DNA of 64,000 bases from Polyangiales bacterium. GTDB taxonomy: Bacteria > Myxococcota_A > Polyangia > Polyangiales > Ga0077539. A program made the translations under genes and the position numbers. The notes under the pieces are model-generated. The model had not been told where the DNA came from and searched no databases. It worked only from the letters and a program-made list of their open reading frames with translations. Position 1 is the stretch's first letter; each line of letters starts with the position of its first letter. This document shows positions 2,529 through 24,171 of the stretch, one piece after another. The DNA lies in assembly GCA_044229975.1 (NCBI GenBank), contig JBGARZ010000006.1, positions 347,525 to 411,524 on the forward strand. The letters run 5' to 3'.

Positions 2529-3488
2529 ATGCAGAAGCCATACGACTTGATGGCGAAGGGGCTGCTCGAAGGAGCCCTCCAGGGGCCTTGCGAGGTGCGC
2601 GTCGAGGAGCAGGTGGTCGCCGACGCCCGCGCCATCGACACGGTGGTGGTGCCCGACCCGAGGCGGCGCGGTGAGCTCACATCGCGTGGTGTCCTGGGCG
2701 ACATCGCGGCGGACTTCTGTGTGATCGAGGCGTTTCATGACGCCCCCGGCGTCAATGAGGTCGACGAATGCCAGTTGAAGACCCTGGCGCTGCACGCCCG
2801 ACAGCGCGCCGCGTGGCAGGCGTTGCCCACGACCGAGCGAGGCCCGGTGCCTCCGCGACCGCGCCTGTGGATCCTGAGCGCGGGCGACCCGGAAACACTG
2901 CGTGAGGCGTGGGCGATGGTCCCAATGCCGTCGTGGCCATCGGGATGTTTCTGGACGGGTAGTGCACTGGCGCCGCATGTCGTCGTGATCCGTTCGTTGC
3001 CACGAATTCGTGACACGCTGCTGCTCCGACTGCTCGGAGCGGGCGACACACTGCGCGCCGCGTACGACGACCTGCGCGCGTTGCCCGACGACGCGTGGGA
3101 GCGAGGGATGTTGACGCCGCTCCTCACGTTGCTGCGACTGGAGCTGCCGCGCATGGGAATCGGGGAGTACGATCCGAAGGAGGAAGCGATGCGATACCAG
3201 GAAGCCGTCGAGATCTATCAGCGCGAGAAGGCCGAGACCCGCGCAGAAGGGCTGCGCGAAGGGCTGCGCGAAGGGCTGCGCGAAGGGCTGCGCGAAGGGC
3301 TGCGCGAAGGCATGGCGCCGTTGCAGAGGCTCTATCAACGCAAGCTCGGTCGCGAACTCACTTCGGCCGAACAGGAGACGTTGTTCGCTCGACTCGCGAC
3401 CGTGGGCGCTGTTCGTCTGGGCGATGTGGTGCTCGACCTCGATGGGCCCGCACTCGACCGCTGGCTCAACGATCCGAACGCGGCCTGA
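2529..3488 (+). CDS. DUF4351-type protein (Rpn/YhgA-like PD-(D/E)XK family, expanded in myxobacteria and cyanobacteria)
   Basis: 319 aa. The N-terminus PYDLMAKGLLEGAL...VVADARAIDTVVVPD...VIEAFH resembles the Rpn-like nuclease core. The C-terminal ~60 aa (LFARLATVGAVRLGDVVLDLDGPALDRWL) resembles DUF4351. Contains an (EGLR)5 repeat. Confidence 0.55.
   Translation: MQKPYDLMAKGLLEGALQGPCEVRVEEQVVADARAIDTVVVPDPRRRGELTSRGVLGDIAADFCVIEAFHDAPGVNEVDECQLKTLALHARQRAAWQALPTTERGPVPPRPRLWILSAGDPETLREAWAMVPMPSWPSGCFWTGSALAPHVVVIRSLPRIRDTLLLRLLGAGDTLRAAYDDLRALPDDAWERGMLTPLLTLLRLELPRMGIGEYDPKEEAMRYQEAVEIYQREKAETRAEGLREGLREGLREGLREGLREGMAPLQRLYQRKLGRELTSAEQETLFARLATVGAVRLGDVVLDLDGPALDRWLNDPNAA
3246..3305 (+). 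repeat. perfect 12-bp tandem repeat x5 (gaagggctgcgc), in frame, encoding (EGLR)5
   Basis: Read directly from the sequence: five identical consecutive 12-mers at 3246-3305, then a partial sixth copy (gaaggc). The antisense ORF 2481..3548 shows the mirror FAQP repeat. Confidence 0.97.
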
Positions 3489-11351: not shown

Positions 11352-12163
11352 AACTCCACGCTCCCGTCTTCGCGCTCGCGCTCGCGCTCACCCCGGCCGT
11401 CTCCTTCGCGCAGCCCGCCAACCCCGAGGTGCAGGCCCGCACCGCCTTCGAGCGCGGCATCGCCGAGGTCGACGCCGGTCGCTTCGCCAGCGCCGTCGCC
11501 GCCTTCGAGGAGTCCTACCGGCTGCGCCCCGTCGCCGTGGTGCTCTTCAACCTCGCCGGGGCGTACTCGCGCATGGGCCGCCACCAGCAGTCCATCGCCA
11601 CCTACGAGCGCTACCTCACCGAGGGGACGCGCCTGCCGCCCGACCGTGTTCAGTCGGTGCGCGATCGCATCGCCGAGCTGCGCCGCGAGATGCCCGTGGT
11701 GGTGCTCCATGTGCGTCCGGCTCCCTTCACGCTCACTGTCGACGGGCGCCCGCAGGCCGTCACCGGCGACGAGCTCGCCCTCGACCCTGGCAGCCACCTG
11801 CTCGTGGTGTCCGCGGCCTCGCGCGCCTCGCAACAGCGCGAGGTGCAGCTCTCCCCTGGCGCGCGCATCACCTGGGACGCCGAGCTCGTCGCCGACAACG
11901 CCGCCGCGCCGACCGCCCCCGTCGTCGCGGTCGCGGCCACGCCCACTGCGCCCGTCGTGACCACGCCGCACCCCGCGGGAGAGACCCCGGTGACGCCGCG
12001 CGAGAGCTCGCCGGGCATCACGTCGCGATGGTGGTTCTGGACGGGCCTTGGTGTCGTCGTCGCGGGCGGCACCGCGCTCGCCCTCGGCCTCAGCGGAACC
12101 TTCGACACCACGCAGGCCCCCGTCGCGGGCACGGCCTACAATCTGTCGGCGGTTCGCTGGTAG
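11348..12163 (+). CDS. secreted TPR-like/PEGA-domain protein with C-terminal TM anchor
   Basis: ATG overlaps the kinase stop (ATGA, 11348-11351). Signal MKLHAPVFALALALTPAVSFAQ, a TPR-like helix pair, a PEGA-like beta domain (VVVLHVRPAPFTLTVDGRP) and a TM (WWFWTGLGVVVAGGTALALGL). Confidence 0.7.
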   Translation: MKLHAPVFALALALTPAVSFAQPANPEVQARTAFERGIAEVDAGRFASAVAAFEESYRLRPVAVVLFNLAGAYSRMGRHQQSIATYERYLTEGTRLPPDRVQSVRDRIAELRREMPVVVLHVRPAPFTLTVDGRPQAVTGDELALDPGSHLLVVSAASRASQQREVQLSPGARITWDAELVADNAAAPTAPVVAVAATPTAPVVTTPHPAGETPVTPRESSPGITSRWWFWTGLGVVVAGGTALALGLSGTFDTTQAPVAGTAYNLSAVRW

Positions 12164-13413: not shown

Positions 13414-14517
13414 TCAGGTCTCGATCGCGAGCGTCTCCAGCCCCGCGACCGTCCCGCAGCGCGTGCGCCCGACGATGAAGATGCGAATCTGCACCTCGCC
13501 CACGCGATACACCGTCACGCCCGTGAGCTCGCGGTTGACCACCTGAACCAGTTGCCGGAAGCGCGCCGCCCGGTGCTGGTCTTCGAGCCCGGCGCCCTCG
13601 TCCGCCACCACCGCGTTGCGCATCAACCGATCGAGCGTGATCTGCTCCACGCGCGTCGTCGCAGGCAAGCCCAGCAGCCCCAGCATCGCCGCGCCCGTCG
13701 GCACCGTGCGCAACCCGCTCGGCGCGTACCACGTCAGCGGCGCGTCGCTCTCCGACGTGAACAACAGCCGCTCCGTCGCGTCGGCAAACGTCGCCTGGAG
13801 CTCGCTCCCGCAGTGCCGCGCCGCCGTCGGCGCCTCCACCCGCACGAACACCTGCGTCGCCCGCAGCACCGGAACCCGCTCCGTCGACGGATTGCCCGGC
13901 GCCGTCGTCCGCACGCCCGCGACCAGCACGCCCTCATCACGCGTTGCTGCGCCGAGCACCGTGTCGCGCGCGGTGTCGCTGAGCGTGGTGAGCCGCGAGA
14001 GGTCGACGCCCGTCACGGGCAGCGGCCGCGCGGTGCTGTTGACCCGCTGCATGTTGAGCGTCGCGCACGGAATGAAGGTGCACATGGTCCCGGTGGTGGA
14101 GACGCGCGAGACGCTGGCGGTGGGCGCCGCGCCGGTGGCCGAGCGCCACGCCTCGCTGGCGACGAAGCGCCCGTAGGTGTTGCCCGTCGCGGCGGCGATG
14201 CGCCCGCGGTACACGACGGCGCCGTCGAGGGAGGTGGCGCCGATGCCGAGGCCCGCGAGGTCGAGCGCGCCGACGTAGCAGCGGTCGGCGGTGGTGCCGT
14301 CGACGCAGCGCAGGGACGACGCGTTGACGGGCGACACCCAGTAGCCGCCGCAGATGGGCGAGACGCAGCGTCGCGTGTCGTGGGCGAGGGTGAAGTACCC
14401 GTCTCCGCGCACCACGACGGAGTCGGTCGAGGTGTCGTCCTCGGCGAGCTCGGCGCCCACCTGACAGCCCGACAAGAGAAGCCCGAGGGCGAGCGAACGG
14501 ACGGCGGTGAACTTCAT
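13414..14517 (-). CDS. lipoprotein with C-terminal nuclease-A-inhibitor (NuiA)-like domain
   Basis: Start at MKFTAVRSLALGLLLSGC (lipobox). The C-terminus (LLFTSESDAPLTWY...ARFRQLVQVVNRELTGVTVYRVGEVQIRIFIVGRT..GTVAGLETLAIET) matches the NuiA-like pattern as I recall it. The N-half is Cys-containing (DUF6748-like). Confidence 0.55.
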   Translation of the reverse strand: MKFTAVRSLALGLLLSGCQVGAELAEDDTSTDSVVVRGDGYFTLAHDTRRCVSPICGGYWVSPVNASSLRCVDGTTADRCYVGALDLAGLGIGATSLDGAVVYRGRIAAATGNTYGRFVASEAWRSATGAAPTASVSRVSTTGTMCTFIPCATLNMQRVNSTARPLPVTGVDLSRLTTLSDTARDTVLGAATRDEGVLVAGVRTTAPGNPSTERVPVLRATQVFVRVEAPTAARHCGSELQATFADATERLLFTSESDAPLTWYAPSGLRTVPTGAAMLGLLGLPATTRVEQITLDRLMRNAVVADEGAGLEDQHRAARFRQLVQVVNRELTGVTVYRVGEVQIRIFIVGRTRCGTVAGLETLAIET

Positions 14518-15809: not shown

Positions 15810-16289
15810 TCATTCCCTGATCGAGAAGGCACCGACTGCGTGGTCGCGCACGGTCCCCTCGACGACAACCACAGCCGGGGACGCCCCAATGTGTACGATC
15901 AGATAGCGGGTCAACGAGTGCGGACCGAAGTGCGTACAGCACACGAAGAAAAACGCGACGTCGTCGATGGTCTCATCGGCGTGCGACGTGGTCATGACGT
16001 GTTCGTCGTCCGACCAGCCATCGGGGGAGTCCTCGAAGCCCATGATGAACTCGGTATCGAATGAAGACTCCCACGCCTGACATTGCATGCCGCCGCAGAC
16101 GGCATAGCGACAGCCCGCATCGAGGAGCGCCCTCGCCACGGCTGCCCTTCGCTCGCCGTCAAAGGAACCATCGTGGTCCCACACGAGGCACGGGAAGGTG
16201 ACCCCTTCGAACGGGACCACGAGGTCATCGGGCGCGGCGATGGACACCGCGTCGAGCCGTCGGTCGCCGATCTCCAGGAGAGTGGTCAA
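15810..16289 (-). CDS. hypothetical protein (159 aa)
   Basis: Clean ORF with GC-rich third positions and no recognised motif. Lies just beyond the distal end of the cassette array. Confidence 0.45.
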   Translation of the reverse strand: MTTLLEIGDRRLDAVSIAAPDDLVVPFEGVTFPCLVWDHDGSFDGERRAAVARALLDAGCRYAVCGGMQCQAWESSFDTEFIMGFEDSPDGWSDDEHVMTTSHADETIDDVAFFFVCCTHFGPHSLTRYLIVHIGASPAVVVVEGTVRDHAVGAFSIRE

Positions 16290-16339
16290 TGGTCTCTACT
16301 CGTCAACGCGTGGTCGATGTACCACCACGGGCGCTGCCA

Positions 16340-16690
16340 TCAGCTCTGGTGCGGGGCGGCGGGGCTCTGCACGAAGAGCCGCGTCTGCGCTTCGTTCGAG
16401 TCGCCGCGGTTCGTCGTGACGACGACGGCGCCCGCCGCGATGCCAGCGGCGGATCGGGTCACCACCCAGCTCCAGCGCGTGAGCACCGCGAGGGGCTCGT
16501 GCAGTGCCCGCGGGTCGCGACCCAGCGGCCCCCACAGCGACGGGTCACAATACAGGATGCCCGTGGTGCGATCGAGCACGAGCGCGGACTCGCCAGTGGC
16601 GTCCGGGGAGCTCTTCAACCAGGCGACGAGCACCTCGTGTCCACGCGGGACGGCTGCGACGAACGGGAGTTCTAGAACTTGTGCGTCCAT
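16340..16690 (-). CDS. hypothetical protein (116 aa)
   Basis: ORF on the same strand as the cassettes, immediately distal to the last attC-like site. No recognised motif. Confidence 0.4.
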   Translation of the reverse strand: MDAQVLELPFVAAVPRGHEVLVAWLKSSPDATGESALVLDRTTGILYCDPSLWGPLGRDPRALHEPLAVLTRWSWVVTRSAAGIAAGAVVVTTNRGDSNEAQTRLFVQSPAAPHQS

Positions 16691-16772
16691 TGTGAGTTTC
16701 CTTGTATCTCGGCGGCCGTACGCATTCGGTGCAGAGCCGCCTGTACCGGAGTCATCGGATCAGACCTCGCCT

Positions 16773-16863
16773 GTCCAACGGATGGCCGATATGCCACCGC
16801 AGCGAGCCGAGTGGGTGTTCGTTGAGGTGAGTGGGGGCGGTCGGCACCATCGGCTTGTTGGAC
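16773..16863 (-). other. attC-like site a (distal; belongs to the TA cassette)
   Basis: Plus strand reads GTCCAAC-ggatggccgatatgccaccgc...ggcggtcggcaccatcggctt-GTTGGAC. The cores fit RYYYAAC and GTTRRRY. Confidence 0.65.
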
Positions 16864-16869
16864 ACGCCG

Positions 16870-17157
16870 TCACCTGCCCTGCCAGTAGCCTGGTTGCCGC
16901 TTGGCGTGAGTAATGGCTACCACGAGGATACGTGTCGGCTCATCACGGTAGAGGATGGCATAGGGAAATCTGGACAGGAGTGCCCGACGCACATCGAGGT
17001 AGATTGGCCAGCGATCCGGCGCCTCGACGATGAGCCCAAGAGTCACGTCGAGTTCTTCAACAAAACGCGCCGCCACTCGCGGATCGCGTTCCGCATACCA
17101 TGCCGCGGCGTCCTCGCTTTCAACGAGGGCGCGCGGGTGCAGCTCAAGGGGTTTCAC
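16870..17157 (-). CDS. type II toxin, ParE/RelE family (cassette 5)
   Basis: 95 aa. Typical ParE/RelE plasmid-stabilisation-type sequence: LHPRALVESEDAAAWYAERDPRVAARFVEEL...FPYAILYRDEPTRILVVAITHAKRQPGYW. The stop lies 6 nt from attC a. Confidence 0.8.
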   Translation of the reverse strand: MKPLELHPRALVESEDAAAWYAERDPRVAARFVEELDVTLGLIVEAPDRWPIYLDVRRALLSRFPYAILYRDEPTRILVVAITHAKRQPGYWQGR

Positions 17158-17395
17158 GTCGACCGTTCGCCGCGGCGAGAATGCGGCGCCGGGCCTCGGC
17201 CCACGGGATTGGCGTCACCGCTCCCGAGTCCACCTCCGCTAGCCGTCGTTGGGCTTCCTCAGCCCATGCCCGTTCGACCCCTTCGTCAGCCGGACCGAGA
17301 TCGTCGAGGCTATCAAGCAACTCAGCGACGACCGCCGCGCGCTCGGTGGCCGGCAGTTGCAGCGCAGCAGCCAAAACATGTTCAACGTCGTTCAT
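17144..17395 (-). CDS. antitoxin, putative addiction-module component (TIGR02574-like) (cassette 5)
   Basis: 83 aa. LQLPATERAAVVAELLDSLD...VERAWAEEAQRRLAEVDSGAVTPIPWAEARRRI is typical of this antitoxin family. Overlaps the toxin start by 14 nt. GAGGAGGAG lies upstream. Confidence 0.75.
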   Translation of the reverse strand: MNDVEHVLAAALQLPATERAAVVAELLDSLDDLGPADEGVERAWAEEAQRRLAEVDSGAVTPIPWAEARRRILAAANGRRETP

Positions 17396-17463
17396 GGGTT
17401 GGTTCTACTCCTCCTCACGCGGGGTCGCGAGTTCGCTCGGCCAACACGCCGCTCGCCGAGGCT

Positions 17464-17555
17464 GCCCAACGGCTGGCCGATGTGCCGTCGCAGCAAGCGG
17501 GGGCGACGATCCTCGGGGATGGGTAGAGGCGGTCGGCACCATCGGCTTGTTGGGA
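17464..17555 (-). other. attC-like site b
   Basis: GCCCAAC-ggctggccgatgtgccgtcgc...ggcggtcggcaccatcggctt-GTTGGGA. The last core base is A instead of Y. Confidence 0.65.
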
Positions 17556-17569
17556 GGCTACGCCACGAC

Positions 17570-17932
17570 TCACTTCCTGCGTGGGTTGGGAGGCTCAGTC
17601 GTGAACAGCCGTCGGAGCCATGACCCATACGCCCACTTGCGCCACCTTGCCATCGTCGCGGCGTACCGAACGAACGCTACCTCGTCGGTAAAGACCTCGG
17701 CTTCGTGCTCGCCCACGGTGTCGGTCAGAGACACCTCCGCAAAAGGAAATGCTCGCAACAGATCGTCCTTCGTCGCGATGGCCGCTTCACGAGTCGCGAA
17801 CGTCGGCCGAAAGGACACCGCACCGGAACAACGGTCTCCATGCGAGTCCAAGATGATACCCGTCTCGACCTCGGCGAGAAGCAGGGTGTAGCGCCCGTCA
17901 CCCATCGCACCCCAGGCAGTCGTCGGGGCCAC
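17570..17932 (-). CDS. hypothetical protein (cassette 4, 111-120 aa)
   Basis: The only sizeable minus-strand ORF between attC c and attC b. The track start at 17932 is GTG; an alternative ATG at 17905 gives MGDGRYTLLLAEVETG. No recognised motif. Confidence 0.45.
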   Translation of the reverse strand: MAPTTAWGAMGDGRYTLLLAEVETGIILDSHGDRCSGAVSFRPTFATREAAIATKDDLLRAFPFAEVSLTDTVGEHEAEVFTDEVAFVRYAATMARWRKWAYGSWLRRLFTTEPPNPRRK

Positions 17933-17957
17933 CGCCCCGCGGGCCCGATGGGTGTCC

Positions 17958-18048
17958 GCCCAACGGCTGGCCGATGTGCCGCCGCAACGGACGCGGCGGG
18001 TTGACGACGCGTGAAGCGGTAGCGGTCGGCAGCATCGGCTTGTTGGGC
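17958..18048 (-). other. attC-like site c
   Basis: GCCCAAC-ggctggccgatgtgccgccgc...agcggtcggcagcatcggctt-GTTGGGC. Confidence 0.7.
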
Positions 18049-18138
18049 ACGCCGCCCGCTGCCCTGTCGATGCGTATGTGCGCCGTCACGCCGTTGCCCT
18101 CCGTGAACTCCGTAGTACCGGACTCAAGACGATCGACA

Positions 18139-18690
18139 TCAGTCGCGCTTCCATAACGAGAGGAATTCCGCGGCTACCACCAACGATCGGCCGCTGTCGG
18201 AGAACCCGAATGCCCGTAGTTCGGGCCAATCCTTGACCAACAGGAACTCCCTGTCCGGTTCGCTGGATGGGTCGTCGTAGGGGACTTTGAGCACCAAGCT
18301 TTCACAAGGCCAGTTGGGCGCGACTCGACGGACATTCCATCCGTCTGGGGTGAAGGCCTTGAGCCCTCCCCCCCACAAGCCAGCAACGGGGATGCGCTGC
18401 CCGGCGAGCGGCCCGATGCCGACAACCGACACGGGGTAAGGGTCGCGCTCGCCCTCCGCGCTGCCGCTGTGGCCGGGTTCGTCGGCCAAGGTGTCGCCCG
18501 TCTTGGCGTCGACCACGGTCAGTCCGTTGTGGGTCAGCACAACCAGCCACTCAGTGCCCGGCGCGAAACCCATTGCGACGGGCATCTCGAAGAACTCCTC
18601 CACGGGCACCACCACCCAAGGGGGCGGCGAACTGACCCTCTGTCGACTTCGCCACTCCGCACGAATCTTTCGGATGTGTCGATTGGTCAT
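18139..18690 (-). CDS. hypothetical protein (cassette 3, 183 aa)
   Basis: Start chosen at ATG 18690 (MTNRHIRKIRAEW); the track start at 18738 is GTG. Beta-rich sequence with no recognised motif. Confidence 0.5.
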   Translation of the reverse strand: MTNRHIRKIRAEWRSRQRVSSPPPWVVVPVEEFFEMPVAMGFAPGTEWLVVLTHNGLTVVDAKTGDTLADEPGHSGSAEGERDPYPVSVVGIGPLAGQRIPVAGLWGGGLKAFTPDGWNVRRVAPNWPCESLVLKVPYDDPSSEPDREFLLVKDWPELRAFGFSDSGRSLVVAAEFLSLWKRD

Positions 18691-18767
18691 TGAATCTTCG
18701 ATCCTGATCGAAGGGCACTGTCGTGGTTGTCGTCGCACTCACGCTGCCAACCCGTAGGACCGAGGCT

Positions 18768-18858
18768 GCCCAACGGCTGGCCGATGTGCCGCCGCACTGG
18801 GTGAAGCGGATTGGCGGCGGGTGCATTGTGCGCGGTCGGCACCATCGGCTTGTTGGGC
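18768..18858 (-). other. attC-like site d
   Basis: GCCCAAC-ggctggccgatgtgccgccgc...gcgcggtcggcaccatcggctt-GTTGGGC. Confidence 0.7.
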
Positions 18859-18864
18859 GGCCCC

Positions 18865-19614
18865 TCAATAGCAAGCGTCGTGAGTGGCATCTTGATCGAG
18901 TTCCAGATCAATCACAGGCAGTCGTCGATCGAGCCAGAGTCCCGCTGGTGTGAAGGCAATCGCAGCCTTCGTGCCTCCCACGGACTGAACGCGACCGGCC
19001 GCCGTCAGGGTTTGAGCCACTATATCAACAGCCAACTCATTGAATGAAACTCGGTCATCTAGTGACTTAAATGGCCACGAAAGCCCCAGAGCTTTCAGGT
19101 TCATGGCGTAATTTTCAAGGCCCGGAATGAGCGTGTTGTAAAATGGATGGTATCCGTTACGAAGCACTGCACGCTCTGCAATGCAAGGATTGTCCTTGTG
19201 CAGTGCGTGCTGCGACGGTGTCGCTCCGTGATGCCCAGTGTGCACATGATAGAGCACGGGGTTGCCGTCTTCGTATCCAGCGACATGAACCCCTCCCCGC
19301 AATTTCTCCCAACTCCGCCCGTCTGCATTCCCCGCTTCTGCGAGAAGACTGGCGAGTTTTGCCCCAGCCGTAGATGGCGTATCACTGCCAGTGAGTTGGT
19401 CGCTGAACTCTTTCACTAATTGATCGCACTGTCTGGAACCAAAGCGAGCGTTTCCCCAAACGGCAAATCCAATATTTGAATCCGCAGAATAATGTATCTT
19501 GGAGGCCCCGAATCGAATCTCGATTGGCCTGTCTGGCCTCGTCACCGTGATAGCTGAGTCACCCACAAGCACGCAGCCGAACGCGGCCGAAACCTCAGAT
19601 ACTACGAGTGTCAT
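18865..19614 (-). CDS. proteasome-beta/HslV-like Ntn-hydrolase candidate (cassette 2, 249 aa)
   Basis: The ATG lies 13 nt after the attC e core and is preceded by GGAAGGAAG. The N-terminus MTLVVSEVSAAFGCVLVGDSAIT...ASKIHYSADSNIGFAVWGNA parallels HslV/proteasome beta (Thr1, G-D about position 17, K-I-x-x about position 33, aG.a.D). The stop lies 6 nt from attC d. AT-richer than the flanks. Confidence 0.55.
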   Translation of the reverse strand: MTLVVSEVSAAFGCVLVGDSAITVTRPDRPIEIRFGASKIHYSADSNIGFAVWGNARFGSRQCDQLVKEFSDQLTGSDTPSTAGAKLASLLAEAGNADGRSWEKLRGGVHVAGYEDGNPVLYHVHTGHHGATPSQHALHKDNPCIAERAVLRNGYHPFYNTLIPGLENYAMNLKALGLSWPFKSLDDRVSFNELAVDIVAQTLTAAGRVQSVGGTKAAIAFTPAGLWLDRRLPVIDLELDQDATHDACY

Positions 19615-19627
19615 GGTTCTTCCTTCC

Positions 19628-19713
19628 GCCCAACGGCTAGCCTATGTGTCGCCGCAACGGGCGTGATGATTTGATAGTTGGTGACGGCGGTCGGCCACAT
19701 CGGCTTGTTGGGC
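19628..19713 (-). other. attC-like site e (belongs to the DUF262 cassette)
   Basis: GCCCAAC-ggctagcctatgtgtcgccgc...ggcggtcggccacatcggctt-GTTGGGC. The arms carry compensated substitutions. Confidence 0.65.
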
Positions 19714-19727
19714 GGTTGCTCGCTTCG

Positions 19728-21506
19728 CTATGTGAAAAGGGCCATCAGCGCTTTTGTCTGCTTAAGTCCTTCCACCTTCACGGTATCGGATCCCCGCCGC
19801 GCATAAACGATGTCGCCCACATCAGAAAGAGATTTTTGGGACGGAATCCAAATGCAAACGACTGACAAGCCGCGGTAAACGATGCAGTCAACACTGCTAA
19901 GCACAGCAGTCTTAAGAGGTTCGCTCAGTTTCGAGTTTTCGATGTGGCGGATGATCTCTCGATTGTAATTCTCAAGGGATACCGCAAGGGCCGATGCTTC
20001 ACGATCGATCCCTACGCAGAACCGTTCTCCAACATGAACGGCCTTGATACCATAGAGCGATTCGATGCGGTCTTTGTCTGTAGCTTTGTCCGCCACGCCC
20101 ACGAAAATCGCACCGCTAGAGGTCGGGCCGAGATTAGCGATACCACAGATGGTGTTGACAATCTTCTCGAGGATATTCGGATCCTTGGTGTGTCCTTCGT
20201 CGAGACGGAGCATGCCCTGTTTGCACTCGAATGCGTTGGTTTCGATCCGCGATCGCCTCAATGCGTTTTCGAACGCAATCGCTGCGCCTGCGCCATGACT
20301 CAATACAGGTGGGTCCTTGTCCTCGAATTGATCTTGGATCAGCCCTTTGATCGTGTTGATGTTTTGGAGGCGAGGCTCGCTGCGAATTTGCCCTGCAGCG
20401 ATGTTTAGTTTGTCGTGTGCTCCTTGGAGAGATCGGACAATCGCGGTCTTGTCCTTTGGACTTCGACGCTGTCTCACGCACAAATCGAAGAACGCCATGA
20501 AGACTGCAAAAAACGCCGTCTTTGCAGGATTCGGGTTCCCTGGACTCACGATCCGCCGAAATGCCGTAGCTGAGTCGTCCACACTCTCAATCACGTCACG
20601 AATGATAGCAATCGTGGAAAGAATCTCGTGCTTCAGGCGGGTGCCTCCGTACGTCGCCAGTTGGGCGTTGAGTTCCCGATATTCAGAGGTCGTCGCATTG
20701 TAGATCCCATCCAAGGCTCCGCCGGAGAACGCAAACGGCTTCCCTTGAAGGACTGAAATTGCGAGATCCGCCACCATCTGCTCATCCTCGCTTTCGCGCA
20801 ACTGGCTGCGACGTAAGATACCCTGCTTACACCAGAAGGTATCGTCAGCCTTGATTCGGTAGGAGGGCATGTCGCCGCCAGCGTCCACACTGATCTCTGG
20901 CATCTGTGCGAGGTCAAGCGACTCGCTCGAGACATCCCCACGAATTTCTGCTGAAAGCTCACGAACGGCCGTCGCAAAGGGCGTGATGACACCAGCCTGC
21001 CGGCGCTCTTGGTCACTAAGTTGCCGCCCATAGGCGTTGATTCTCCCGAAGACCTCCGTCACTGACTGTTCGTTGTTCGCCGGGAATTCAGTCACGGCGA
21101 GAGTGTACTCCAGAAACCTGGCACACTCATCGGCACTAAAGAGGGCGCTCTCCTTAGGTACTGGAGGGATTTTACCTTCGTCCGCGAGTGACCGCGCTCG
21201 CGCCAACTGCGAGACGTCGAAGTACCTCCCATTGACTGGAAACGCATCCTCGATGAATGAAAATATAGCGTTGAGTCTCTGCATTCCATCCAGAATCTCG
21301 AAGCTCTTGTTTCCGTCCTCCCGAAGTGTGTATGCCAACAGCAGCAGAGGAATAGGGAACCCCTGGAGGATAGAGTCAACCAGCTTCTGTTTCTCTTCGA
21401 TGCTCCACACCAGCTTCCGCTGGTACCTTCGATTCACTCGGAAGTTCCCGTCCCGAAACTCTCGATATGCCTCTTGGACACTCATTCCGCGCGGCGTAAC
21501 ACTCAT
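19728..21506 (-). CDS. DUF262 (ParB/Srx-like) N-terminal domain fused to a Schlafen/AlbA_2-like C-terminal domain (cassette 1, 592 aa)
   Basis: Start at ATG 21506 (MSVTPRG), with GAGGG 5 nt upstream. DUF262 motifs: NRRYQRKLVW, LVDSILQGFPIPLLLL, EILDGMQRL (DGQQR-type). The C-terminus (ETNAFECKQG...ILEKIVNTICGIANLGPTSSGAIFVGVADK...IVYARRGSDTVKV) fits the AlbA_2 pattern (E.EfK...i.ktI.AfaN..GG.i.iGV.D...yvR.gs.t). The stop lies 14 nt from attC e. Confidence 0.8.
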   Translation of the reverse strand: MSVTPRGMSVQEAYREFRDGNFRVNRRYQRKLVWSIEEKQKLVDSILQGFPIPLLLLAYTLREDGNKSFEILDGMQRLNAIFSFIEDAFPVNGRYFDVSQLARARSLADEGKIPPVPKESALFSADECARFLEYTLAVTEFPANNEQSVTEVFGRINAYGRQLSDQERRQAGVITPFATAVRELSAEIRGDVSSESLDLAQMPEISVDAGGDMPSYRIKADDTFWCKQGILRRSQLRESEDEQMVADLAISVLQGKPFAFSGGALDGIYNATTSEYRELNAQLATYGGTRLKHEILSTIAIIRDVIESVDDSATAFRRIVSPGNPNPAKTAFFAVFMAFFDLCVRQRRSPKDKTAIVRSLQGAHDKLNIAAGQIRSEPRLQNINTIKGLIQDQFEDKDPPVLSHGAGAAIAFENALRRSRIETNAFECKQGMLRLDEGHTKDPNILEKIVNTICGIANLGPTSSGAIFVGVADKATDKDRIESLYGIKAVHVGERFCVGIDREASALAVSLENYNREIIRHIENSKLSEPLKTAVLSSVDCIVYRGLSVVCIWIPSQKSLSDVGDIVYARRGSDTVKVEGLKQTKALMALFT

Positions 21507-21730
21507 CTTGCCCTCTTTTCTATCCTCTCTCTGTCGCAGGGTCGGATCAAGGTTTGCTTGGCAAGGGAGTGCCATGTCGAAGACTCAAGCTCGCCCGGCC
21601 GATTCTGGCGTACTGGAGTCGTGTTGTCATTGAGTATCGACGCACTGCCGGAGAGGATTGTAGATCGCTGCGACGCCCGCCCAACATCTCATTCACCCGC
21701 GCGCCCACTACCGAATCCCGCCCTGGCGCT

Positions 21731-21830
21731 GCTCGCCCGCTTGCTGCCCAAATCCATATCCCCGTTCGCGTTGTTCGCCCGCTCGCTGCCGAGTTCCACA
21801 ACCCCATTCGCGCGTCGTTCGCCTATGCCC
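21731..21830. repeat. ~41-bp tandem repeat, about 2.5 copies, adjacent to the proximal array junction
   Basis: Copy 1 (21731-21770): gctcgcccgcttgctgcccaaatccatatccccgttcgcg. Copy 2 (21771-21812): ttgttcgcccgctcgctgccgagttccacaaccccattcgcg. A partial third copy (cgtcgttcgcctatgccc...) follows. Confidence 0.6.
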
Positions 21831-21846
21831 ATCCCCCCCACGCCCA

Positions 21847-24171
21847 TCACCCCCGCCGCCGTCGCCTCCTCGCCATCCCCGCTGCCATCCCCACTACTGC
21901 CAACACCCCGAGCCCGCCGCTCTTCCCACTTCCATTCCCACTACCGACCACCCCGCATCCGCAGCCCGACCCGCCTGCGTCCGTCGTCGCGCCGCCGCGA
22001 ATCAGCTCCACTGGCCTCGGCAGTTCCACGCCCCCATCCACGCTCACCGCGCGCCCCATCACCACCTCCAGCACCGCCGGCTCCGCGTCCGCGCTCTCCG
22101 GCTCATCCACCACGCGCGCCCGCACCTCCACCCGATGCTCACCCGCCAGCTCGAACGTCGGCGCCGTCACATCCACCCACGGTCCTGCCGCCCACCGCGA
22201 CCACGTCATCCCGTCCACCCGCCACGAGTACTCGTGCGGCCGATCGCTCACCGCCGACGCGCCCGGCGCCACCCGCACCCGCACCCGCGCGCTCGTCCCC
22301 ACCGGGTCGACGCCCAGCACGCTCGCGTCCGTCTCCGCCGCCGCGATGCTCGGCATCGTCGCGCGCCGATACCGCAGGTCCATGAACAACCCGAGATACC
22401 GCGACCCGCCCTGCTCCATTCCCACCAAGCCGTTGTCGGGAAGCTCCAGGTTCACCGTCCCCACCGGCATCCCCATCGCTCCCGGAACCGGAATCGACGG
22501 AATCGCGATCGCCGGAATGCTCCCACCCAACATCCCGATGGCCGTTCCCAACAACCCGTCAAAGGACATCGCCAGCCGCGCCGGCGCATCACTCACCAGC
22601 GTCGACCCCGTCACCACCGTACCGCTCGTGCGCACCGTCCCGAGCGACGGCCGCAACCCACCCGCGTCGCGCATCAGCGTGAGCGGCGCCGTCACGTCGG
22701 TGGTCACCGTGAGCGCCCGCACGTAGCGCTCCTCCGACCACACCATGAGGTCGAGCGCGAGCCGCTCGAAGCGCAGCGTGAGCGTCGGCGACGGGCCCGA
22801 CGACATCGCCACCGTCGGCGGACGCTGCGGCCGTAGCACCAGCGCCACCGGCCCCGACAGCGACGGAAACAGCACGTTGCGCAGCGACGGAACGATGATC
22901 GAAAAGGTCCCCGACGTGAGCTGCTGCGAGAGCGAGCTCGTCACGCCAAGGCAGAACGTCCCCGAGTCCCACAATTGATACAGCGCGTGGTTGAGGAAGG
23001 TCTCCGACAACCCCACGCCGAGATCCATCGAGCGCATTCCCCCCGGAACATCGTTGCGCCGCAGCGCCGTCCACTCGGGGATCTCTGGCACCGTCGGCTC
23101 CGCCACGCGCGGCACGCAGTTGTTGTGTCCGCGCGACTGCGCCACCCCGAACACGTTGAGCGTCATCCCCTGCGTCGACACCTCGGCGTCGTGCGCGTGG
23201 TCGCCCGCCGCAATCACGATGGCCGACTCGCCGCGCACACCCGGGCTCACCGACGCCAGCAGCGCCCCGACGTTGCCCGCCATCTCGACACCCAGCAGCG
23301 ACGGAACCGTCTGCCCGTCTTCATACCGACACCGCGCTCCCTGCGCGACGCTCCCCAGCGGACACCCCGGCGGATCAGGCATCGACGCCTGGCTCAACGC
23401 ATCTTGAATGGGCCCCAGCGCACCACCGATGGCGCCACCAAACGCGCCCGAGATGGTTCCTCGCAGCACCGGGAGCAGCCCACAGAGTCCGCCGCCCGAG
23501 CAGCCCACCCACGCGTCGTCGAAGCCCTCTCCCGGCGTCTGCTCGATGACCTCCGTCGCCCCCATCGCGGGCACAAGCTCCGCCCGGAAGTAGTCACGCC
23601 GCGACGGGTGCGTGTCCCGCCGGATCACGATGGCCGTCCGCAGCCCGATGTACGACCGCGCGCCGCGCGCCGTGTCGATGGTGAGCCGCGTGTCGATGCC
23701 GTCCGCGCAACCGCCGCACATGCTGTTGCAGAACAGCGTGCACGTCCGCAGCGGAATCTCTCCGCGGAAGCCCACGCGCAGCCGCACCTCGATGCGATCG
23801 GGCGCCACGAAGAACAGCTCCAGCGGAGGCGGACTCGTCGGCAGCACCAGGTCGAGCCCGCAGCTCCCATCGCGGCACACCACGTAGCGCCCGACGCCGA
23901 AGTTACCCGTCACCAGCGGGATGGGCAGCCGTCCACCGGTCACGCCCAGCAGCAGGTCGGCGCCGAGCTGCGACACGTTGCGCAGCCCCTGATCGCTCAC
24001 CCGCACCTGCATCGCCCGCGGCACCCGCGTCTCCGGCGTCACCGGATACCCCCGCGGAATCGGCCCCAGCGCACCGCCCGCGCACGATGAGCAGCCCCCG
24101 CCGCTGCACCCCGCCACCGCGATCGCCACGACCATCATCCGAACCAGCGCGACGACGTCCCTGAGGTGCAT
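21847..24171 (-). CDS. large secreted lipoprotein with C-terminal MYXO-CTERM sorting domain
   Basis: Start at MHLRDVVALVRMMVVAIAVAGC (lipobox). The C-terminus GGSGCGCGVVGSG...LGVLAVVGMAAGMARRRRRRG is the Cys-containing, hydrophobic, Arg-cluster tail typical of MYXO-CTERM. The track ORF extends to 25293, but that part is shadow-like. Confidence 0.75.
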   Translation of the reverse strand: MHLRDVVALVRMMVVAIAVAGCSGGGCSSCAGGALGPIPRGYPVTPETRVPRAMQVRVSDQGLRNVSQLGADLLLGVTGGRLPIPLVTGNFGVGRYVVCRDGSCGLDLVLPTSPPPLELFFVAPDRIEVRLRVGFRGEIPLRTCTLFCNSMCGGCADGIDTRLTIDTARGARSYIGLRTAIVIRRDTHPSRRDYFRAELVPAMGATEVIEQTPGEGFDDAWVGCSGGGLCGLLPVLRGTISGAFGGAIGGALGPIQDALSQASMPDPPGCPLGSVAQGARCRYEDGQTVPSLLGVEMAGNVGALLASVSPGVRGESAIVIAAGDHAHDAEVSTQGMTLNVFGVAQSRGHNNCVPRVAEPTVPEIPEWTALRRNDVPGGMRSMDLGVGLSETFLNHALYQLWDSGTFCLGVTSSLSQQLTSGTFSIIVPSLRNVLFPSLSGPVALVLRPQRPPTVAMSSGPSPTLTLRFERLALDLMVWSEERYVRALTVTTDVTAPLTLMRDAGGLRPSLGTVRTSGTVVTGSTLVSDAPARLAMSFDGLLGTAIGMLGGSIPAIAIPSIPVPGAMGMPVGTVNLELPDNGLVGMEQGGSRYLGLFMDLRYRRATMPSIAAAETDASVLGVDPVGTSARVRVRVAPGASAVSDRPHEYSWRVDGMTWSRWAAGPWVDVTAPTFELAGEHRVEVRARVVDEPESADAEPAVLEVVMGRAVSVDGGVELPRPVELIRGGATTDAGGSGCGCGVVGSGNGSGKSGGLGVLAVVGMAAGMARRRRRRG

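Follow-up and report, generated by a model that had tools for sequence, protein, structure and literature searches.

Clusters of attC sites that lack an integron integrase (CALINs) are defined as two or more attC sites that share a strand and lie within 4 kb, without an integrase (PMC4889954). RefSeq holds 2961 of them and 2760 complete integrons, and they average almost six attC sites (PMC9024848). Integrase loss, rearrangement and insertion at secondary sites have all been proposed as their origins. Chromosomal integrons are classed as sedentary if they are present in all genomes of a species or hold more than 19 attC sites (PMC4889954), and the cassettes of chromosomal integrons often encode phage defence (bioRxiv 10.1101/2024.07.02.601686). 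attC sites of Myxococcota integrons have been noted earlier (PMC9668308). Here we describe a locus in 64,000 nt of contig JBGARZ010000006.1 from a Polyangiales bacterium (this whole stretch is referred to as the window) that is very probably an integron cassette array without an integrase. We read the array as a decayed integron and not as a free-standing cluster, because it begins with a truncated attI, and it probably originated by the loss of intI and most of attI from a complete integron.

The array is organized around five repeats of 86-92 nt, all co-oriented on the + strand between 16773 and 19713. They are given here from the attI end outwards, with their scores under a covariance model (CM) of the repeat family that is described below.

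19628-19713, + strand: attC e, 86 nt; family CM 76.6 bits, E = 1e-21; the + strand is its bottom strand
18768-18858, + strand: attC d, 91 nt; family CM 103.8 bits
17958-18048, + strand: attC c, 91 nt; family CM 103.3 bits; fold of -35.3 kcal/mol, z = -5.4
17464-17555, + strand: attC b, 92 nt; family CM 79.9 bits; tail GTTGGGA, one base off GTTRRRY
16773-16863, + strand: attC a, 91 nt; family CM 91.7 bits; the distal and last site

The start-to-start spacing of the sites, read from the distal end, is 691, 494, 810 and 860 nt. All five copies begin with G(C/T)CCAAC, which fits RYYYAAC, and end with GTTGG(G/A)(C/A), which fits GTTRRRY in four of the five. The arms, of about 27 nt, are near-identical among the copies and complementary to each other, and the centres vary. 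Arm patterns allowing up to three mismatches found no copy beyond these five in 64 kb (shuffled sequences lead one to expect 0), and a position-weight-matrix scan of the window found no orphan arms. A first-pass annotation of this DNA, made from the letters alone, had placed the same five repeats at the same positions and in the same orientation, and the heads, the tails and the single deviation in copy b that it listed are all present in the sequence.

Folded as DNA, the + strand of the repeats forms a terminal 7-bp R helix plus one G-T pair, then an internal loop whose 5' side has 5 nt and whose 3' side has 2 nt, and then a 16-bp stem (7+5+4 bp). A single C and a single T bulge from the 3' arm in all five copies, and fold z-scores range from -2.8 to -5.4. 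The computed fold reproduces the one drawn by hand in the first-pass annotation, including the 5-versus-2 loop and the bulged C and T, and the comparison of both strands that the annotation had called for favours the + strand by 3.7-6.3 kcal/mol. The family CM is strongly strand-specific: under it the window copies reach 77-104 bits on the + strand, compared with 11-25 bits on the opposite one.

In described attC sites, the bottom strand carries 5'-RYYYAAC in R' and has its extrahelical bases close to L'', on the arm opposite AAC (PMC5027507). This strand is also the more stable and G-rich one, with a loop that often contains GAA (PMC5027507). The + strand of the window agrees with every one of these points, which supports its assignment as the recombinogenic bottom strand. 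If the + strand is the bottom strand, cassettes are read on the - strand; this had been predicted in the annotation, and all of the cassette open reading frames (ORFs) do lie on the - strand. The ends of the repeats, their single-strand fold, their extrahelical bases and their 3' position in the cassettes are thus all those of attC sites.

The repeats belong to a family that is widespread in Myxococcota. An exact-pattern scan for the 3' arm, with one genome per species, returned 64 loci, about 45 of which hold the whole element. Nearly all of these whole-element loci come from metagenome-assembled genomes (MAGs) of Myxococcota, under the labels Polyangiales, Myxococcales, Myxococcaceae or Deltaproteobacteria. 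Matches in Alphaproteobacteria, and most of the others from outside Myxococcota, have no 5' arm and were discarded as coincidences. A family CM made from 60 copies with the hand-drawn structure detects about 126 copies of full length, distributed over 46 loci of Myxococcota MAGs; they are 300-2800 nt apart and co-oriented within every one of the 46 loci.

Across 149 aligned family matches, 92.7% of cells are paired and compensatory changes occur at 15 of 23 pairs. None of 500 shuffles reached this level of pairing, and slid registers pair at just 19-49%. AAC/GTT is retained in at least 127 of the 149 matches, and the model strand is the more stable one in 118 of 126 copies (mean 3.2 kcal/mol), with a GC skew of +0.20; GAA is present in 58 family centres. 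Element length is almost fixed, at 91 nt in 101 of the 126 copies. The earlier claim that the centre is different in every copy stands for the five window copies compared with one another, but the centres are not random, since the family has a G-rich consensus and this near-fixed length.

The consensus of the family centre also contains an internal imperfect direct repeat (GGGTGAAGYGGG, twice). Outside the element, CGAGGCTG is conserved and often stands just before the RYYYAAC head (for example, at 17455-17463 and 18759-18767 of the window), so that conservation reaches a few bases into the 5' end of the cassette. The same motif stands before the head at the attI junctions of two relatives, L053 and L066.

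The family is linked to integron integrases. A tblastn search with an IntI1 sequence, used as a lead only, identified full-length ORFs in loci L053, L014 and L042 and fragments in four further loci. The three full-length ORFs are integron integrases by the NCBIfam model TIGR02249 (391-409 bits, cutoff 265). In L066 (GCA_041389825.1 JAWKRC010000047.1, Polyangiales), a 316-amino-acid (aa) tyrosine recombinase of the Phage_integrase family adjoins attI and the array, and a metagenome contig, L086, encodes an integrase that is 76% identical to that of L053. In canonical integrons, the sense strand of intI is the attC bottom strand. Correspondingly, intI is divergent from the array in all five complete relatives (L066, L014, L053, L042 and L086), its sense strand is the strand matched by the CM, and it lies 175-260 nt from the crossover.

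Several further features of these related loci bear on how the family is organized. Degraded integrase sequence is present in L022 (4890-5468), where a fragment 38% identical over 62 residues to the N-terminal region of IntI1, in scrambled surroundings, adjoins an attC of the same family; integrase decay thus occurs in this lineage. Single MAGs carry family arrays on three to four contigs, as in STL-MYX7 (L002/L005/L016/L048/L064), GW715_bin.15 (L003/L011/L018/L054/L063) and AalW (L004/L039/L050/L059). Multiple arrays or CALINs per genome seem common in the lineage, with a count that assembly breaks at repeats may have inflated. The array of L066 holds only two sites of the 91-nt type, together with weak matches of about 80 nt (13-14 bits) on the same strand (-) at 11763-11842, 14296-14375 and 16665-16744, and a second attC type probably coexists there.

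Cassette exchange provides a second line of evidence. Where the crossover falls inside the core (AA|C), the last six core bases belong to the neighbouring cassette. The resulting hybrid cores imply complementarity between the 7-mers on the two sides of a cassette, but not necessarily between the two ends of a single attC. Over 79 adjacent pairs, cassette-flanking 7-mers have a mean of 0.53 mismatches, compared with 1.37 for the two ends of the same element and 1.46 for random pairs. Compared case by case, the cassette-flanking 7-mers match better in 46 and worse in 9, with hybrid cores such as GTTCGGC/GCCGAAC, GTTAGAT/ATCTAAC and GTTAGAA/TTCTAAC. The window holds five cassettes, each with its own attC.

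19634-21684, - strand: cassette 1, 2051 nt, 54.6% GC; ORF 19728-21575, 615 aa; own attC e
18774-19633, - strand: cassette 2, 860 nt, 56.2% GC; ORF 18865-19614, 249 aa; own attC d
17964-18773, - strand: cassette 3, 810 nt, 64.4% GC; ORF 18139-18690/18738, 183-199 aa; own attC c
17470-17963, - strand: cassette 4, 494 nt, 65.6% GC; ORF 17570-17932, 120 aa; own attC b
16779-17469, - strand: cassette 5, 691 nt, 65.0% GC; toxin-antitoxin pair; own attC a

Over 816 nt, cassette 3 shares 81% identity with the first cassette in the complete L066 integron. The similarity spans the ORF and its own attC, including the centre, and stops exactly at GCCCAAC|. Past this point the window enters attC d and L066 enters attI, and the other edge of the homology is the end of the cassette's own attC. 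From this breakpoint follow both the position of the crossover and the rule that a cassette owns the attC 3' of its ORF. Additionally, the cassette 4 protein has an 80% identical counterpart between two attC sites in L052, and copies of cassette 5 at about 80% nucleotide identity occur among different neighbours in arrays L031, L004 and L061. These copies keep their own R'' (GTCCAAC), and the adjoining R' varies. The patterns point, indirectly but specifically, to recombination by an integron integrase at AA|C. Thus, by the linkage of the family to integron integrases and the break in cassette homology at AA|C, we identify the repeats of the window as attC sites.

At the end of the array opposite attC a, the sequence passes into the remnant of an attI.

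21674-21700, + strand: truncated attI junction; core GCCCAA|C at 21679-21685, then 15 nt of attI side, ATCTCATTCACCCGC

The annotation had ended the feature at 21685, and a core GCCCAAC does stand there, but it is not part of an attC and belongs instead to the truncated attI. The core is followed by ATCTCATTCACC, 12 nt that are also found directly after the core beside intI in L014 and L066. Positions 21674-21700 match L086 at 27 of 27 nt, and in that contig intI lies about 190 nt further on; the junction is likewise identical to the L066 attI at 19 of 19 nt. The attI-intI spacers of the relatives resemble each other (score 67, shuffle mean 20), and beyond about 21700-21712 the window aligns with those of L066, L014 and L086 no better than shuffles do. 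Candidate alignments for the rest of attI or the spacer in 21701-21900 were at shuffle level, and an apparent CAYAACCCCAT motif was unsupported. A metagenome scan for the junction yielded 64 matches, 63 of them unrelated low-GC sequence and only L086 real.

No intI gene or pseudogene was detected in six frames of the 64 kb (tblastn and phmmer; best E = 0.014, which is noise), in line with the earlier statement that the window encodes no tyrosine recombinase. The locus therefore has five same-strand attC sites with less than 4 kb between them, and neither an integrase gene nearby nor a pseudogene within 10 kb, as in a CALIN, and it differs from a complete integron by having no intI beside attI. 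The CALIN-like reading of the first-pass annotation is upheld by this absence, together with the attC family and its integrase linkage in relatives. An independently assembled Logan contig (L065, 2.97 kb) is 100% identical to 18767-21738 and spans the breakpoint. Between the attI stub and the stop of the adjoining lipoprotein gene there is a 42-nt tandem repeat (21726-21809, about 2.5 copies, 79% identical). The end of L065, at 21738, falls inside this repeat, which suggests that the repeat, or a second copy of it elsewhere, breaks assemblies.

attC sites recombine in single-stranded, folded form, and here the recombining strand is the + strand, laid out as R' (RYYYAAC), unpaired spacer, paired L box, variable loop and R'' (GTTRRRY), with T and C extrahelical on the L'' arm. 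The integron integrase cuts between A and C of AAC, and it moves cassettes by excising them as circles (attC x attC) and inserting them at attI. We take the cassettes of the window to have been assembled in this manner, with the two attI-proximal ones as the newest captures, because their GC content is about 55% in a genome of 69%. A later deletion or rearrangement would then have removed intI and the rest of attI, breaking the sequence about 15-34 nt into attI, and left a CALIN. The attC sites look intact, so an integrase working in trans could still excise the cassettes. Without Pc, the usual promoter of such an array, most of them would probably be silent, except any with a promoter of their own, such as the toxin-antitoxin pair might have.

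A variant of this history is a split integron, in which a rearrangement parted the array from an intact intI that now services it in trans from elsewhere in the genome, so that the system would be functionally complete. The scores of all five attC sites lie within the range of complete-integron sites, the attI-proximal cassettes are compositionally young, related MAGs hold arrays on several contigs each, and half of CALINs lie in replicons that also encode IntI (Cury et al., PMC4889954). However, the loss of most of attI would hamper new insertions at this locus, and the intI pseudogene of L022 indicates that integrase decay does occur in the lineage. We regard a split integron as possible but on balance doubtful. 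It is very unlikely that the cassettes were inserted by an integrase at a secondary chromosomal site that never had its own attI or intI. Such creation of CALINs is documented (discussed in PMC4889954) and secondary sites need hardly more than GTT/AAC, but the 15 nt past the crossover are identical to the attI of L086, L066 and L014, and for the 12-nt part alone the probability of a chance match is about 6e-8.

The missing intI could also be an artefact, with repeats near attI having caused a chimeric join in a metagenome-derived contig. The related genomes recovered are all MAGs, and the independent Logan contig stops in the 42-nt tandem repeat. That contig nevertheless runs across both the attI junction and the end of homology at about 21700, although it may derive from the same reads, and the source contig is 555,889 bp long; we consider such an artefact highly improbable. 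Finally, the repeats are GC-rich imperfect palindromes between genes, and could in principle be dispersed elements resembling repetitive extragenic palindromes (REPs) or miniature inverted-repeat transposable elements (MITEs), or else terminator hairpins, with no tie to integrons. Against this, there are no copies outside the array in 64 kb, orientation is uniform here and in every related locus, and there is one copy per cassette. The family is also linked to integron integrases, with hybrid cores and exact cassette breakpoints, and no T-runs follow the hairpins. We see next to no chance that this last explanation is correct. Among the observations that the first-pass annotation had named as speaking against an array were dispersal of the repeat in the manner of a REP or MITE and an identical locus without cassette variation across distant relatives. 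Instead, no copies lie scattered in mixed orientation, and the genomes differ in their cassettes.

Some observations weigh against an integrase-less array derived from a complete integron, and temper our confidence in it. The extrahelical base closer to the R box is C where G is usual, and the unpaired spacer is asymmetric (5 versus 2 nt). Rfam, a database that has no attC family, yielded no meaningful match, either in a permissive scan of the region or in a scan of the window at the gathering threshold. The case for recombination is built on sequence comparison, and the evidence for the deletion history is a remnant of only 15-34 nt. We found no syntenic relative in which this chromosomal site holds an intact intI. 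The intI search, with three integrases checked against TIGR02249 as queries, covered the 64-kb window.

The cargo of the array comprises four single ORFs and one toxin-antitoxin pair. The stop codons of the last ORFs lie 14, 6, 90, 14 and 6 nt from the next element, as the annotation had noted in giving 6-14 nt for four of the five. It had also placed the start of the 18865-19614 gene 13 nt after a core, and the ATG of cassette 2 at 19614 is indeed found there, preceded by GGAAGGAAG. GC content drops from about 70% to 53-55% at 19-21 kb and climbs away from attI, from cassette 1 to cassette 5, compared with 69.4% in the whole window. The array region is compositionally foreign, and the gradient is consistent with insertion of new cassettes at attI. 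A promoter scan of the array found nothing above chance.

The cassette 1 protein contains a DUF262/GmrSD_N domain (PF03235, 1.2e-19) and a weakly AlbA_2-like C-terminus (PF04326), has NsnA as its best PADLOC match (1.1e-26) and is without the C-terminal nuclease domain of GmrSD. We consider it, on these domain matches, a DUF262/NsnA-like defence candidate. An identical copy of this cassette is present on Logan contig L065. The cassette 5 genes are an antitoxin (17144-17395; PF09720, 9.5e-17) and a ParE toxin (16870-17157; PF05016, 1.9e-9).

The cassette 2 protein has no match to a family in Pfam, NCBIfam or PADLOC. Its AlphaFold2 model (predicted local distance difference test score 91.9) matches 20S proteasome beta subunits and Anbu in Foldseek with probability 1.0. 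The protein belongs to a family of about 73 unannotated hypothetical proteins in which T2, D19, K39 and G49 are invariant. The model and these residues suggest a stand-alone N-terminal nucleophile (Ntn) hydrolase of the Thr1 type that is proteasome-beta-like. Two homologues, P0040 and P0022, are solitary genes in ordinary chromosomal surroundings, and no partner gene is conserved beside them. The cassette 3 protein is 91% identical to P0074 of a sister genome, and in fold searches its model gave only weak, WD40-like (beta-sheet) matches and no functional call. The cassette 4 protein has no match in Pfam, NCBIfam or PADLOC.

Beyond the distal end of the array, the last attC is followed directly by a short segment with one ORF.

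16290-16772, - strand: sequence distal to the last attC; ORF 16340-16690, 116 aa, matching no family, directly after attC a

This segment may be a sixth cassette minus its attC, or the original flank. A candidate for a sixth attC beyond 16773 was 16301-16328, which matches the 5' arm at 19 of 28 positions and does not exceed background; it was not recovered by the CM with filters off, was unranked in the matrix scan and gave an unconvincing fold. Just past the distal end lies a DUF7684 gene (15810-16289, - strand), and the array of L015 has a homologue of 52% identity (2618-3076) in the corresponding position beside it. The CM with filters off and the matrix scan detected no attC for either the 116-aa ORF or the DUF7684 gene, and the latter may be an old cassette with a decayed attC. 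No flanking gene is common to the window and its intI-bearing relatives, the matches being paralogous families and the L015 homologue.

On the other side, the 3' end of the lipoprotein gene (stop at 21847) lies 147 nt beyond the attI remnant. This lipoprotein-like gene extends from 21847 to about 24150 on the - strand, with an internal Met followed by ...VAIAVAGCSGGGC, and the listed ORF of 1148 aa is probably over-extended at its 5' end. Its C-terminus, with GCGC, a hydrophobic stretch and RRRRRRG, resembles a MYXO-CTERM sorting tail, which fits a Myxococcota host.

These results illustrate that attC architecture and strand polarity can be recognized from raw sequence. The biological gain from the locus itself is modest, as it adds one more typical CALIN to a class about as common as complete integrons. 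The analysis also documents an integron lineage in the largely uncultured Myxococcota (Polyangiales-type MAGs), with a very homogeneous 91-nt attC, a recognizable attI junction (AAC|ATCTCATTCACC) and its own integrases. These features can serve directly as a search model when mining for cassettes in a phylum whose accessory genomes are known to be large. The array further supplies, in its cassettes, a short list of compact mobile genes worth testing, namely the DUF262/NsnA-like gene, the proteasome-like Ntn hydrolase and two unknowns. A bolder and rather unlikely extension is that the 91-nt attC type marks a cassette pool shared over many Myxococcota lineages with its own integrase clade. The CALIN would then be an active reservoir serviced in trans, and the low-GC cassettes 1 and 2 would be new anti-phage or conflict genes.

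Set beside described CALINs (PMC4889954, PMC9024848), the window is alike in having no intI or pseudogene nearby, five attC sites where about five to six are average, and cassettes mostly of unknown function. It differs in keeping a recognizable truncated attI, whereas 95% of CALINs are without such an integrase trace, and its host phylum is scarce in complete-genome integron surveys. With sedentary integrons, such as the Vibrio cholerae superintegron with its V. cholerae repeats (VCR) and those of Xanthomonas, it shares a chromosomal location, homogeneous attC sites longer than mobile ones, a toxin-antitoxin cassette and other cassettes that are unknown or defence-like. In contrast to these, the window has only five cassettes and no integrase, and its 91-nt attC type is common to many MAGs and not confined to one genus.

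Compared with mobile attC sites (attCaadA7; Nivina et al. 2016, PMC5027507), the window sites share R' and R'' boxes on the bottom strand with the crossover in AAC, an L box, an unpaired central spacer, a variable terminus and two extrahelical bases on L''. The bottom strand is the more stable, G-rich strand in both. However, the window sites, at 86-92 nt, are longer than the mobile ones (57-70 nt), they have C and not G as the base nearest the R box, their spacer is 5 versus 2 nt and not roughly symmetric, and the family centre is semi-conserved. The complete Myxococcota integrons are alike in their shared attC family, in the attI junction (L066, L014 and L086) and in one cassette (L066), and differ in keeping intI and the full attI-intI spacer, which the window does not. 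The locus is thus a known kind of element that has already been described, distinguished by its attI stub, its homogeneous 91-nt attC family, its C extrahelical base and its cargo.

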